A stretch of 9,849 bases of DNA from a virus. Its lineage: Duplodnaviria; Heunggongvirae; Uroviricota; Caudoviricetes. Made by a program: the position numbers and the translations under genes. This document shows positions 5,064-7,287 of this stretch, piece after piece (within the stretch, counting starts at the first letter, position 1; every line of letters starts with the position of its first letter). Below the pieces are notes generated by a model. It worked only from the letters and a program-made list of their open reading frames with translations. It did not search any database and was not told the origin of the DNA. The stretch is taken from IMG/VR virus record IMGVR_UViG_2671180473_000003. One strand, 5' to 3'.

Positions 5064-5095
5064 ATCCCGCCCCCCGACAGACCTGTGCTATCGGA

Positions 5096-5129
5096 AAGAA
5101 AAAAGGCCATCAGCAAAACTCTGATGGCC
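5096..5129 (-). terminator. Intrinsic terminator just upstream of the holin gene
   Basis: 9-bp stem GGCCATCAG (5105..5113) / CTGATGGCC (5121..5129) with a 7-nt loop. On the minus strand it is followed by TTTTTTCTTTCC. Confidence 0.55.
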
Positions 5130-5239
5130 TGAATCACCTTTACCAATATTGTATGAAAAAACACGCACGACTAATTGACAATAATTTTCATTTCCATTAA
5201 AAAAGATCGCGTAGCATTCTTAATTCATGAGGAACTTTA

Positions 5240-5304
5240 CCCGCCAGCAATCTGAGTAGCGAAAGCTGTTCATCCCCAATGTTTTTGCTGGCGGGTCCTT
5301 TTTT
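5240..5304 (+). terminator. Orphan plus-strand hairpin plus T run (terminator-like), with no plus-strand gene nearby
   Basis: 11-bp perfect inverted repeat CCCGCCAGCAA (5240..5250) / TTGCTGGCGGG (5285..5295) with a 34-nt loop, followed on the plus strand by TCCTTTTTTCT. Confidence 0.3.
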
Positions 5305-5743
5305 CTACGGTCCTCCTCCCCGGAGGGGGGCATTTCATTATTTTTCTAATCGTTACTGGTGAGAAGGCGGAAGAAAAAGCCAGTTCTTCGCCCCTAAATA
5401 ACAGCATGATTCCAGTCCATGCAAAATCTGATTTCCAGCTCACACATACCGAGCACTGTACAAAAAACCGCCAGCCAAGGCAGTTAAGAGTGTGTTCCCG
5501 GGGTTTGCTTAGAATATTTTGTAAGTTGTCCGAAGAGATATTTACAACACCAGAATGATGAATCATCAGTCCCCTGCCAGAGGTTCACTACGTAACCTGA
5601 CCGACAATGCACCATTCTGGTGCTGAAAAAAGAGCACTGGAACTGCAACAAAACAACATCACAGAACAGGAGATGGTAAGGAGTCAGACATTCCCACACA
5701 ATATTGTGTCAGTGCAAATAACAACCTTCGTCTCAAATCTCGC

Positions 5744-5818
5744 TGGAGCGGGCAGCGGGAATCGAACCCGCATCATCAGCTTGGAAGGCTGAGGTAATAG
5801 CCATTATACGATGCCCGC
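5744..5818 (-). tRNA. tRNA-Gly (anticodon UCC)
   Basis: The reverse complement folds as a 75-nt cloverleaf: acceptor GCGGGCA/TGCCCGC, anticodon loop CTTCCAA, T-arm GCGGG-TTCGATT-CCCGC, encoded CCA. It is, as far as I recall, near-identical to chromosomal glyT. Confidence 0.85.
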
Positions 5819-5821
5819 ATA

Positions 5822-5897
5822 TGGTGCCGACTACCGGAATCGAACTGGTGACCTACTGATTACAAGTCAGTTGCTCTGCCTGCTGAGCTAAGTCGGC
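5822..5897 (-). tRNA. tRNA-Thr (anticodon UGU) with one A-C mismatch in the T-stem
   Basis: 76-nt cloverleaf: acceptor GCCGACT/AGTCGGC (G1-C72 and C2-G71, both Thr identity elements), anticodon stem ACTGA/TCAGT, loop CTTGTAA, T-loop TTCGATT, discriminator A, encoded CCA. Confidence 0.7.
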
Positions 5898-5899
5898 GC

Positions 5900-5976
5900 T
5901 GGCCCACCACCGAGGACTCGAACCTCGCACCGTCAACTTAGAAGGTTGATGCTCTATCCGGATGAGCTAGTGGTGG
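5900..5976 (-). tRNA. argN: tRNA-Arg (anticodon UCU), argN/argO-like phage tRNA
   Basis: 77-nt cloverleaf: acceptor CCACCAC/GTGGTGG, D-stem GCTC/GAGC, anticodon stem TCAAC/GTTGA, loop CTTCTAA, T-arm CGAGG-TTCGAGT-CCTCG, encoded CCA. Confidence 0.8.
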
Positions 5977-5977
5977 T

Positions 5978-6054
5978 TGGTGGCCCTTGCTGGACTTGAA
6001 CCAGCGACCTGGCGATTATGAGTCGCTCGCTCTGACCAACTGAGCTAAAGGGCC
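5978..6054 (-). tRNA. ileZ: tRNA with anticodon CAU, probably tRNA-Ile2 (lysidine type), ileZ/ileX-like
   Basis: 77-nt cloverleaf GGCCCTTTAGCTCAGTTGGTCAGAGCGAGCGACTCATAATCGCCAGGTCGCTGGTTCAAGTCCAGCAAGGGCCACCA, resembling E. coli ileX as recalled. Met versus Ile2 cannot be settled from the anticodon alone. Confidence 0.8.
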
Positions 6055-6063
6055 GGAGGCAGA

Positions 6064-6092
6064 ATAATAACCATATGTCATCACATCTGCAA
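6064..6092 (-). promoter_or_regulatory. Putative sigma-70 promoter for the tRNA array
   Basis: Minus-strand TTGCAG (-35; 6092..6087), a 17-nt spacer, TATTAT (-10; 6069..6064), then 9 nt to the 5' end of the first tRNA. Confidence 0.45.
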
Positions 6093-6142
6093 ACTCATCT
6101 GACCACCAGCACGTTTAACGTCCTGTGCCGTTTTTCAGGTAT

Positions 6143-6166
6143 AAAAAAACCCGCTCATCGGCGGGT
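6143..6166 (-). terminator. Intrinsic terminator downstream of the ORF6N-domain gene
   Basis: Minus-strand stem ACCCGC / GCGGGT with loop CGATGA, followed by TTTTTTTAT. Confidence 0.55.
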
Positions 6167-6243
6167 TTAAGCTGTGTGGCGTAGTAACCACTCTTAACAG
6201 GATATTCAACTTTTTACGATCGTAAAGTTTTCGGAAAAAATTT

Positions 6244-6807
6244 TTAAAACCGCATCAACCGCTCCACCAGTTGCTCTTTACGGGCAACGATCCACCCGTG
6301 TTGCTCCAGATAAAATTTAAACCGTTCCAGAGTACATACCATCGCATCGGCGGGTACCTTTTCCGTGAACTCAACCTGACCGTGTTTATCGAAGTGGCTC
6401 AGTAATGCGCATCCATCATTTTCGATAGATGTGTTTTGTGCCGCTGGTGGCTGTTTCTGGTTGAAATAACAGTCTTCCAGTTTTTCGAACACTTCCCACG
6501 CCTGATCGGTTTCGAGCATTTTGGCGTGACGGGCTGCGCCACGTTCTGTCCAGAGGATGAGGGAGCGAACGTTACGGGCAATTTTCACAGAAACTCTTAA
6601 AGAGTTTTCGTTCTTCAACTCTCGTAACGCATCACCTTCTATCAGGAAAAAATGTTTACCTTCTATAAACCGTTCTTTGTTTCGATTGAAATTGTTTGTC
6701 AAACGCTGGCGCTCTGTTCCGTACAAATCAGCCAGCAGCTCTGTTGTCATGACAGGAAGATGGTTATGCGTAAGTGACGGGAGTTTTTCAATAGACGTGC
6801 GATTCAT
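6244..6807 (-). CDS. ORF6N-domain (KilA-N-related) accessory protein with an uncharacterised C-terminal domain
   Basis: The N-terminal region LPVMTTELLADLYGTERQRLTNNFNRNKERFIEGKHFFLIEGDALREL...RSLILWTERGAARHAKMLETDQAWEV matches the recalled ORF6N consensus. Start taken at the ATG at 6807, which has an AAAGGA RBS 7 nt upstream; the long ORF-track form (to 7005) has a GTG start, no RBS and implausible composition. Confidence 0.7.
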   Translation of the reverse strand: MNRTSIEKLPSLTHNHLPVMTTELLADLYGTERQRLTNNFNRNKERFIEGKHFFLIEGDALRELKNENSLRVSVKIARNVRSLILWTERGAARHAKMLETDQAWEVFEKLEDCYFNQKQPPAAQNTSIENDGCALLSHFDKHGQVEFTEKVPADAMVCTLERFKFYLEQHGWIVARKEQLVERLMRF

Positions 6808-7013
6808 AGACATGTCCTTTCGAATATTTTGATTTACCCCTTTTGAGAGGGTGACCGGGCGCTCAAAACCGTCGAAAGTCGGCGGGCGTATTTCCATTGC
6901 TGGTATTGTATTAGCCGCACACCCGGTCATAAACCAAGAATTCTGGACACAAAAAAACCACATGGCTATCGGGTGTGGATACCGCTTTCGAGGTGTTTTG
7001 AGCACCGCGGGGA

Positions 7014-7042
7014 AATGTAAACTGCAAACCTGAAACTGTCAA
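7014..7042 (-). promoter_or_regulatory. Putative sigma-70 promoter upstream of the ORF6N gene (leader of about 200 nt)
   Basis: Minus-strand TTGACA (-35; 7042..7037), a 17-nt spacer, TACATT (-10; 7019..7014). Confidence 0.4.
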
Positions 7043-7165
7043 CACCGTCAGGTTCCAATCATCGGGTGGTGAGACGCACAGGGTTGGAACTACCGGGAAA
7101 CCGACCGGCGAGCTTTTCAGCTCCCCCATGCGCCCCACCATAATTCAGATGTGCGCGTGCATACG

Positions 7166-7192
7166 ACAATAAAAAACACGCTCGCGGCGTGT
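7166..7192 (-). terminator. tR'-like intrinsic terminator ending a short (about 80 nt) pR' leader transcript
   Basis: Minus-strand stem ACACGC / GCGTGT with loop CGCGA, followed by TTTTTTATT, about 55 nt downstream of the predicted pR' start site. Confidence 0.6.
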
Positions 7193-7253
7193 GTCTGTCG
7201 CGGTCTCTATCCGGGGTTCCAATCCCGACGCCAGATTTTGCTGGCGCGTGAGG

Positions 7254-7283
7254 AATATAGCCCCGGACAATGTGTCTGGTCAA
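7254..7283 (-). promoter_or_regulatory. Late promoter pR' immediately downstream of Q
   Basis: Minus-strand TTGACC (-35; 7283..7278), an 18-nt spacer, TATATT (-10; 7259..7254). The -35 begins 5 nt after the Q stop codon, the expected lambdoid arrangement. Confidence 0.55.
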
Positions 7284-7287
7284 GCAC

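Follow-up and report, generated by a model that had tools for sequence, protein, structure and literature searches.

The late regulatory region of Shiga-toxin (Stx) phages such as 933W, Sp5 and Sp15 runs from the antiterminator gene Q through the late promoter pR′, the small RNA (sRNA) StxS, the terminator tR′ and the tRNA genes ileZ, argN and argO to the toxin genes stxAB, the gene nanS-p and the holin gene S. A 9,849-nucleotide stretch of DNA from a virus of the class Caudoviricetes (IMG/VR record IMGVR_UViG_2671180473_000003), called the window here, has a 933W-type Q gene, tRNA genes and a holin gene in the same order, and no stx gene was found in it. The locus raises two questions: whether the space upstream of its holin gene is a toxin site that has been emptied or left unoccupied, and where the promoter served by this Q protein is located.

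All genes of interest, with the promoters and RNA elements described below, are on the minus strand, and coordinate pairs given in descending order follow the direction of transcription. The order is a DnaB-like helicase gene, a small open reading frame (ORF), RusA, Q, ~480 bp of structured RNA genes, an ORF6N-domain gene, four tRNA genes, a 680-bp tract poor in ORFs and a phage-21-type holin gene. A first-pass annotation of positions 5064–7287, a region that spans the holin start to the Q stop codon exactly, had labelled this series as Q, pR′, tR′, tRNAs and holin, with no toxin genes and with the ORF6N gene lying between tR′ and the tRNAs. Its gene order and its remark about toxin genes hold. 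The pR′ and tR′ labels do not, as the Rfam families isrK and c4-a1b1 both give full-length matches at the positions concerned; the ORF6N gene is found instead between Q and a pR′ homologue (6226–6138).

Our reading is that the window carries the late control region of a lambdoid prophage that is mosaic, free of stx and of E. coli type, in which a 933W-type Q gene is separated from its pR′ (6226–6140) by an antirepressor module with two stacked antisense RNA units. We assign this reading a probability of roughly 75%, on the basis of homologies, RNA family matches, complementarity between antisense loops and their targets, and covariation. Annotation of pR′ and tR′ by their position after Q can thus mislead: where this Q allele precedes the antirepressor module, as in ~1% of complete E. 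coli genomes, the real late promoter would be ~1 kb beyond Q, and a misplaced pR′ affects any prediction of how strongly cargo is expressed.

Q and its predicted late promoter

The Q gene (7288–7695) encodes an antiterminator of the 933W/Stx-phage type (PF06530, 2.7e-52, 176 bits; phrog_79), and its true start is likely ATG 7674, which gives a protein of 128 amino acids. Over 124 residues, this protein is 80.6% identical to Q of the Stx2a phage VT2phi_272 and 83.9% identical to Q of the Stx1 phage BP-4795, which bears out the allele type proposed in the first pass. It is 97.7% identical to Q of prophage VL7S7, and a tblastn search of 50,697 phage records returned 404 records, the best of which (78–84%) are mostly Stx1a- and Stx2a-converting phages. 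Similarity to the solved Q21 structures 6p18 and 6jnx is only distant (33.8 bits), that to DUF1133-type Q proteins is marginal, and none could be detected to the Q of Gifsy-1. Q proteins of the 933W type are also found in prophages that lack a toxin. The C terminus reads ...MDRYVERIM in place of the 19-residue tail of Stx-phage Q, and thus homology breaks inside the 3′ end of the Q gene.

Comparison of the window by blastn with the Q-to-S region of a Stx2a phage yields four blocks (Q, the tRNA region, the holin gene and a block of ~90 bp), and comparison with that of a Stx1 phage yields three (Q, the holin gene and the ~90-bp block). The short block (6226–6138) matches, with 85% identity, a Stx-phage sequence that spans the Q stop codon and extends beyond it. 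In the Stx2a phage, this sequence carries TTTACG-16-TATCAT, and a start ~8 nt further on is separated by 257–258 nt from the T-tract of the downstream hairpin GCCAGCC...GGCTGGCTTTTTT. This spacing matches the 258 nt published for the distance from the mapped pR′ start to the Term-seq 3′ end of StxS at tR′ (PMC7547250), and we therefore take the block to be the pR′ region. The published distance was used because the Sakai coordinates in the StxS paper disagree with NC_002695.2.

In the window, the block supplies a promoter, TTTACG-16-TATCCT (6199–6226), with its −35 element at 6226–6221, its −10 element at 6204–6199 and a predicted start near 6192; in Stx2a and Stx1 phages, the matching segment (85% identity) adjoins the Q stop codon. 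A conserved initial transcribed sequence follows, and then a hairpin, AAACCCGCCGATGAGCGGGTTT, with a T-run (6168–6140). In the terminator scan this hairpin (AAACCCGCCGAUGAGCGGGUUU and T-run) is the first terminator after pR′ and after the antirepressor gene. Only the first ~55 nt of the StxS leader are homologous, and its distal 170 nt, with the mapped tR′, are absent from the window.

The only segment homologous to Stx-phage pR′ is 3′ of the ORF6N gene, and this places the ORF6N module between Q and pR′. The promoter is 1.06 kb from the Q stop codon (7288), whereas it overlaps the 3′ end of Q in Stx phages. Judged from its sequence, the module that separates the two is a 1.05-kb unit with promoters of its own.

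The pairing of this promoter with this Q type can be followed among related prophages. Those with 933W-type Q keep the TTTACG segment both when Q abuts it (Stx phages) and when the antirepressor module intervenes (the window, VL7S7 and RM11911), and the segment is also kept in VTB97022v, where an unrelated minus-strand gene intervenes. Prophages with a DUF1133-type Q have a different promoter segment, either without the antirepressor module (FDAARGOS_944) or with it (VL40). The hairpin at 6168–6140 is likewise kept in Stx phages, and an unrelated hairpin is found on the same T-run in DUF1133-Q prophages. Because each Q family has its own pR′ segment whether or not the module is inserted, Q and pR′ appear to be a cognate pair, and the promoter at 6226–6199 is likely the target of the window Q.

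An IsrK and C4 leader after Q

Rfam reports four RNA families between Q and the ORF6N gene, namely isrK, c4-a1b1, C4 and sRNA-Xcc1, each matched in full length and above the gathering score. The first three make up an antisense unit that begins directly after Q. Its promoter, TTGACC-18-TATATT (7254–7283; 10/12 in a promoter scan), is of the isrK type, and the predicted start at ~7247 coincides with the first base of the isrK match. The IsrK-like leader or sRNA (7171–7247; 77.5 bits) contains an intrinsic terminator in the terminator scan (7192–7176), and the c4-a1b1 match (50.1 bits) covers 7260–7208. A C4-type antisense RNA follows at 7062–7145 (RF01695, 71 bits, model positions 1–87 of 87).

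The C4 loop b′, GUUCCAA (7090–7084, +158 to +164), is an exact 7-mer complement of two targets. One of these, b1 (UUGGAAC, 7222–7216, +26 to +32), is inside IsrK, and the other, b2 (UUGGAAC, 7058–7052), is just 3′ of C4 at a place where a Shine-Dalgarno sequence is not evident. Across 51 fetched loci we found three classes of b′, each with its complement ~128 nt upstream and 32–34 nt downstream. Folding of whole-C4 duplexes with the flanks was uninformative because intramolecular stems dominate, and searches for exact k-mer complements together with covariation were used instead.

A 76-codon upstream ORF (6911–7141, from the ORF list) corresponds to orf45 of Gifsy-1. It has AUGs at 7141 and 7129, or +107 and +119 from the IsrK 5′ end (7247), and its end is inside the 5′ arm of the Xcc1-like RNA described below. 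Translation of this ORF is a prediction; residues 35–76 (7039–6911), the sole part scanned, gave no family match.

In 20 of 20 sampled viral contigs, isrK and C4 are upstream of relatives of the ORF6N gene. The junction of this Q allele with isrK is present in 53 of 5,426 complete E. coli genomes (~1%).

A probable second antisense unit at the antirepressor gene

The ORF6N gene (6244–6807) encodes an AnrP homologue of 187 amino acids counted from ATG 6807 (PF10543, 1.5e-20). The protein matches the anti-repressor family phrog_2379 over its full length (3e-85) and is 49% identical to STM2616/AnrP of Gifsy-1; its antirepressor activity is thus predicted by homology. The mechanical ORF call extends to GTG 7005, and ATG 6807 was picked from Shine-Dalgarno spacing and a conserved ATG column.

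A second sigma-70-type promoter, TTGACA-17-TACATT (7014–7042; promoter scan 10/12), heads the unit that precedes this gene, and divergent relatives keep it at the same position as TTGACA-17-TACATT or TATAGT. An sRNA-Xcc1-family element (6845–6928; RF02221, 77.4 bits, gathering score 53) is found between the end of the upstream ORF and the antirepressor start, where it is placed as a second C4-type antisense RNA. It has a hairpin loop, b′ (CUUUCGA, 6878–6872), and a single-stranded element, a′ (GUUUUGAGC, 6869–6861). Upstream targets at 6985–7003, named a1 (GCUCAAAAC, 7003–6995) and b1 (UCGAAAG, 6991–6985), are exact complements of a′ and b′. Downstream targets at 6817–6832, named a2 (UCAAAA, 6832–6827) and b2 (UCGAAAG, 6823–6817), emerged from the complementarity search and covariation; b2 overlaps the antirepressor Shine-Dalgarno sequence AAGGA. 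The a′ element is fully complementary to a1 and partly to a2. Both this RNA and C4 end in an outer stem followed by CACC(C), an arrangement compatible with processing by RNase P without being evidence of it.

In one sequence, 7-mer complements such as these could be due to chance, and covariation was therefore assessed. Xcc1-like elements were gathered with an exact 16-mer that excludes the loop, which gave 59 viral contigs, 24 distinct sequences and eight loop sequences. Of the 24 sequences, 21 have two exact complements of the loop 7-mer, one ~120 nt upstream of the anchor and the other exactly 47 nt downstream. Among the 18 7-mers tested per element, the loop 7-mer alone has complements at both fixed offsets. 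Relatives of the window carry, for example, the target/loop/target sets UCAGUAG/CUACUGA/UCAGUAG and CAGAAAG/CUUUCUG/CAGAAAG.

In an alignment of 23 sequences, b1 and b′ are 96.9% paired, with five of seven pairs changed on both sides and 53 double-changed cells, and b′ and b2 are paired in 100% of 161 cells, again with five of seven pairs changed on both sides and with 55 double-changed cells. None of 500 shuffles reached as high a value in either case. When the partner is slid by 1–3 columns, pairing falls to 31–55% (32–53% for b′–b2) with at most three double changes. The genes 3′ of Xcc1-like leaders encode ORF6N, Phage_pRha, Bro-N with P22_AR_C, or KilA-N proteins, which are antirepressor-type families.

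A two-lock model

If this arrangement works as its parts suggest, transcription from 7283–7254 would mostly halt at the IsrK terminator, and the read-through RNA would carry the C4-type RNA. The C4 loop b′ would then pair with b1 within IsrK and with b2, and would thereby control translation of the upstream ORF that starts at +107 or +119. The second unit would start at promoter 7042–7014 and would consist of a1/b1, the sRNA-Xcc1-family antisense RNA and a2/b2. Its loop is predicted to pair with b2 on the Shine-Dalgarno sequence of the ORF6N gene and so block translation of the antirepressor, with the upstream copy b1 serving as a competing or decoy site and with a variable 5-nt loop core setting specificity.

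Translation of the upstream ORF, brought on perhaps by a build-up of IsrK or by early transcription that reads through Q, could begin derepression. Ribosomes on this ORF would enter the 5′ arm of the Xcc1-like RNA and cover a1/b1, freeing the antirepressor ribosome-binding site. By analogy with AnrP in Gifsy-1, the antirepressor would next disable a phage repressor and favour induction. RNA polymerase modified by Q and starting from 6226–6199 would read through the hairpin at 6168–6140, the tRNAs and the two leader terminators to the holin gene.

Several observations weigh against this reading. The −10 element of the pR′ homologue (TATCCT) is a weaker one, and the promoter scores 8/12, below the scan threshold. 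The sequence upstream of its −35 element, which in Stx phages includes the region coding for the C-terminal tail of Q, is absent, and part of the Q-binding element may have gone with it. The homologue of the first hairpin in Sakai is internal to the 258-nt StxS precursor, with tR′ mapped at a point farther downstream (PMC7547250); the hairpin at 6168–6140 may terminate poorly. The upstream ORF stops 98–104 nt before the candidate antirepressor starts (6813 and 6807), making classical translational coupling not obvious, and a scan of its C-terminal 42 codons gave no homologue of known function. For unit 2, the Xcc1 sample comes from related enterobacterial prophage contigs and the shuffle controls overstate independence, so the argument from covariation rests on the slid controls and on the number of distinct classes. 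The a′, a1 and a2 contacts are invariant in this sample, owing to the way in which it was collected.

Relation to Gifsy-1 and P1/P7 immunity

The closest counterpart is Gifsy-1 of Salmonella, where the published order is antQ, isrK, an ORF of 45 codons that overlaps the processed RNA STnc1160, the antirepressor-like gene anrP and isrJ (Hershko-Shalev et al. 2016; PMC4825925). In the Gifsy-1 record, the genes have this order and are followed by a tRNA, cargo (gogA) and a holin gene. Both loci have Q, the isrK promoter and sRNA, a C4-like RNA overlapping a short ORF, an antirepressor-like gene, a short terminated transcript (a predicted one in the window) and a tRNA, and their leaders are 83.5% identical. 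In Gifsy-1, pairing of IsrK G28 and G31 with C162 and C159 was proven by compensatory mutations, and the orf45 start codons were mutated at A107C and at 119–121 (PMC4825925, Table 1). The window has AUGs at the same +107 and +119, and its b1 and b′ are at the positions that pair there (IsrK 28–31 with 159–162) and are exact complements. The elements of Gifsy-1 are ACGCCAA (b′), UUGGCGU and UUGGCGU at the same offsets, whereas the window has the specificity UUGGAAC.

The two loci differ in their Q (phage-82-like phrog_304 in Gifsy-1, phrog_79 in the window), in the length of the upstream ORF (45 and 76 codons) and in the complete second antisense unit that is intercalated before the antirepressor gene in the window. 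The window links the Salmonella IsrK circuit to E. coli prophages that have a different Q, and the presence of the circuit beside a different Q suggests a portable cassette inserted at the Q/pR′ junction.

Gifsy-1 IsrJ (3360–3434 of the fetched locus) starts 33 nt after anrP, behind TTGCAA-17-TATATT, which is the position of pR′ and its hairpin in the window. No isrJ match was found in the window by Rfam even at an E-value of 1, and the 933W-type pR′ and hairpin take that position. IsrJ may be the short terminated late-promoter transcript of Gifsy-1, a counterpart of lambda 6S RNA and of StxS.

The immI operon of phages P1 and P7, reportedly described by Citron and Schuster in 1990, is said to have the order P51, a1 b1, c4, a2 b2, icd and ant. 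Rfam groups the C4-type RNA families in clan CL00128. By analogy with immI, the window would produce antisense RNAs that are cut from the transcript they control, with flanking pairs of targets of which the downstream one covers a ribosome-binding site. In both systems the arrangement guards an antirepressor, and a few loop bases set specificity, as between P1 and P7. The Rfam C4 and c4-a1b1 models match the window over their full length, and targets are present on both sides (b1 and b2 in unit 1, a1/b1 and a2/b2 in unit 2). The window element is different in being lambdoid, in having an ORF6N-type antirepressor rather than P1 Ant1/2 and in stacking two units, and its unit 2 targets the Shine-Dalgarno sequence of the antirepressor itself, not that of an icd-like ORF. 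By these comparisons, the locus belongs with the antirepressor control systems of Gifsy-1 and P1 immI, at the Q/pR′ junction of a 933W-type late region, and its variant feature is the putative second lock of the Xcc1 family.

RF02221 corresponds to an integron-cassette sRNA of Xanthomonas, reportedly described by Chen and colleagues in 2011. The window copy agrees with this family in its full-length covariance-model match. It differs from the published account of a trans-acting, virulence-linked sRNA in being encoded in cis with covarying flanking targets, one of them on the Shine-Dalgarno sequence of the next gene. The association of sRNA-Xcc1 with an ORF6N gene has been noted in APSE phages, without a proposed mechanism. 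The papers that we found treat sRNA-Xcc1 as trans-acting and linked to virulence and draw no connection to C4-type control, though other literature may hold one, and Rfam lists the family outside the C4 clan. The covariation gives this widespread family a concrete candidate target and mechanism.

A broader proposal, which we judge as apt to fail as to hold, is that sRNA-Xcc1 is a C4-class, cis-encoded immunity RNA rather than, in the first place, a virulence sRNA that acts in trans. The family would then be a cassette of promoter, decoy, antisense RNA and ribosome-binding-site target that gates antirepressor-type genes (ORF6N, Rha, Bro-N/P22 Ant and KilA-N), with a 5-nt loop core and at least eight orthogonal specificities. 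The window would have two stacked, independent RNA locks, the IsrK/C4 and Xcc1 cassettes, both of which must open before the antirepressor is made. The loop classes would act as a heteroimmunity code that decides which co-resident prophages cross-induce one another. Such a mechanism would alter the interpretation of matches to this family in enterobacteria, insect symbionts and plant pathogens.

In Xylella fastidiosa De Donno, Xcc1, isrK and C4 are found within 400 bp on one strand in that order (1,323,982–1,324,381; PMC12189769, Table 4), and thus the stacking of both antisense types is not confined to enterobacteria.

The tract between the tRNAs and the holin gene

The tract upstream of the holin gene (5064–5743) is 680 bp long, not ~640 bp as first estimated, and the first impression that it holds no convincing ORF is sound. 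Its 98- and 71-amino-acid ORFs have no Pfam or PHROG match, and a 63-amino-acid hypothetical protein annotated in VTB97022v is frameshifted and without an ATG here, with homologues that differ by 1-nt indels. The terminator scan places intrinsic terminators on the sense strand at 5485–5466 and 5130–5104 and one terminator-like hairpin on the antisense strand. On the basis of the ORF, Rfam and terminator scans, we infer that the tract is a conserved non-coding leader, in which the terminators would keep the lysis genes silent until Q-modified polymerase arrives.

Conservation of the tract is uneven. The full 680 bp are present in 9 of 5,426 E. coli genomes, and a distal block (5444–5095) is ~85% identical in 1,428 of them, where it is unannotated. 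In the LT-IIb prophage fragment SerU-LTIIb, the sequence that follows tRNA-Gly resembles the proximal 200 bp of the tract. The segment 6154–4759 is 99.1–99.4% identical in FDAARGOS_944 and VL40, which have a DUF1133/phrog_753 Q and no stx at this site. A colinear spacer is thus present in non-Stx prophages, as the first pass had allowed; the different Q family that it had coupled with such a spacer is not found, the window Q being of the 933W type.

The most durable alternative, though an unlikely one, is that the tract encodes small regulatory RNAs with host targets, like the convergent AgvB and AsxR or the Pas sRNAs that other prophages have in this place. Prophage sRNAs are known from the region downstream of pR′ (PMC4104026; Pas preprint), and the two sense-strand terminators, the antisense hairpin and the conservation of blocks across 1,428 genomes are what such genes might leave. 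In its favour is also the run UGUGAUGUUGUUUUGUUG (5646–5663, sense), in the trailer after tRNA-Gly, which matches the E. coli GcvB R1 seed at 17 of 18 positions with a local alignment score of 31, compared with a shuffle mean of 20, a standard deviation of 2.1 and a maximum of 27. This run is not conserved in two SerU-LTIIb homologues and may be due to chance; as a mimic of the GcvB seed, this statistically unusual run was set aside. Against sRNA genes more generally, Rfam searches of the tract at an E-value of 1 gave no AgvB, AsxR, STnc100, Esr41 or GcvB, and nothing else apart from chance matches to the plant microRNAs MIR1515 and MIR2646, far below their gathering scores. Comparison with the four Pas loci of E2348/69 (PasA, PasB, PasC and PasD1, with coordinates from the PMC8550237 supplement) likewise shows similarity at the holin start only. 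The tract folds no better than its shuffles (z = −1.4), and RNAalifold on five tract sequences finds almost no covariation. The reading as a non-coding leader is therefore retained.

The same interval holds other material in related prophages, either STnc100 alone or STnc100 with a convergent AgvB (RM11911, 3199–3386; locus L067, 2368–2623). The window interval has neither, and thus the modularity of this interval extends to non-Stx prophages.

On ColV/ColBM plasmids and ST131 chromosomes, the distal block is fused to an Rz fragment beside iss, and the holin and lysozyme genes are deleted (pAPEC-O1-ColBM locus, 3001–3344; ST131 locus, 4001–4348; window, 5095–5444).

Other explanations for the locus

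An improbable alternative for unit 2 is that the Xcc1 match is a trans-acting sRNA, as in Xanthomonas, and that the flanking complementarity is incidental. The literature on the family that we found favours such a role, and within a single sequence ~2.5 chance 7-mer complements per 500 nt are expected by estimate. Incidental complementarity is hard to reconcile with eight loop sequences that each have exact complements at two fixed offsets, with pairing of 100% and 96.9% and 53–55 double-changed cells compared with three at most in the slid controls, and with a downstream site that always abuts the Shine-Dalgarno sequence of an antirepressor-type gene. Control in cis by the Xcc1-like RNA remains the preferred account.

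The layout of the first pass, in which 7283–7254 is pR′, 7192–7176 is tR′ and the ORF6N gene is a moron 3′ of tR′, is quite improbable. This promoter does come directly after the Q stop codon and is the best sigma-70 match in the region, and an intrinsic terminator ~70 nt downstream is what would be expected of lambda pR′ and its 6S RNA. The block has the full-length isrK and c4-a1b1 matches, however, and the Stx-phage sequence that abuts Q is found at 6226–6138 instead. Including the −35 element, the block (7289–7055) is 84.7% identical in VT2-Sakai, after ninE and ~2.3 kb upstream of Q, and in many Stx1 and Stx2 phages it likewise follows ninE, before an ant gene. It also follows three unrelated Q families: phrog_304 in Gifsy-1, phrog_753 in E. 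coli VL40 and phrog_79 in the window. Each Q protein acts on a promoter and binding element of its own. Because a block common to three Q families is difficult to square with this specificity, the promoter at 7283–7254 is not a Q target. In Gifsy-1 the same element has been characterized as the isrK promoter.

That the window derives from a former Stx phage from which stxAB (and nanS-p) were deleted, leaving 5064–5743 as the scar, is hardly credible: it shares with Stx phages the 933W-type Q, an ileZ-like first tRNA and an S21-type holin, but blastn of 5743–5077 finds no similarity to the stx flanks of VT2phi_272 (Stx2a) or BP-4795 (Stx1), a distant-mode search of the phage collection with the tract returns SerU-LTIIb and a few non-Stx phages only and no Stx phage, prophages with another Q family carry the tract at 99% identity, the tRNAs are a different set (with Thr and Gly and without Arg-UCG), and STnc100 and AsxR, which follow stx2B, are absent.

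A deletion scar was accordingly rejected, and by these comparisons the tract is not a vacated toxin site, nor does the first-pass suggestion of an unoccupied one fit a tract that is unrelated to the stx flanks. Likeness to Stx phages comes down to the Q family (81–84% amino acid identity), the pR′ promoter with its first hairpin (85%), the first tRNA and the holin type; stxAB, nanS-p, STnc100 and AsxR are missing, the tRNA set is another one and the tRNA-to-S tract is unrelated. The answer to the stx question is thus an ordinary one, and the window would be neither a primed nor an emptied Shiga-toxin site.

tRNA genes and neighbouring features

The tRNA array (5744–6054; ARAGORN and Rfam) consists of an Ile2-type tRNA (CAU), Arg(UCU), Thr(UGU) and Gly(UCC). 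ARAGORN calls the first of these Met, and PGAP calls it tRNA-Ile in relatives; it matches Stx2-phage ileZ at 74 of 77 positions. The other three are not argN or argO, with a best match of 61 of 77. A promoter-like site just upstream of the tRNAs, TTTGCA-18-TATTAT (6064–6093), scores 9/12 in the promoter scan, which is weak evidence for a promoter; in Sakai Sp5, a tRNA promoter was mapped between tR′ and the tRNAs (PMC7547250).

The interval between pR′ and the tRNAs varies in content. VL7S7 and RM11911, which have the same Q, carry a 65-amino-acid gene and a 352-amino-acid DNA methyltransferase gene there (locus L001, 4400–5910), and Stx2 phages keep a 33-codon methylase remnant (locus L007, 6753–6851). 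The window has neither the 65-amino-acid gene nor the methylase, and only 30 bp (6072–6101) in their place. This interval is therefore a second variable slot besides the one between the tRNAs and S.

The class II holin gene of phage 21 S type (4848–5063; PF04971, 1.5e-35) is the first gene of the lysis cassette and has ~75% nucleotide identity to the Stx-phage S gene. Genes for lysozyme, Rz, an HNH endonuclease, the small and large terminase subunits and the portal follow 3′ of it. A run of 346 N (4413–4758) interrupts lysozyme and the beginning of the Rz region, and the window therefore does not show whether the lysis cassette is intact.

Between the helicase and RusA genes, an 85-amino-acid ORF (8035–8292) matches only the C-terminal 83 of the 204 positions of phrog_2565 (5e-31) and may be a truncated or split gene. 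The HNH endonuclease gene (3777–4127) is directly upstream of the small and large terminase genes. An HNH gene beside the terminase is typical of HNH-assisted cos packaging in HK97-like phages, unlike the packaging modules of lambda and 933W.

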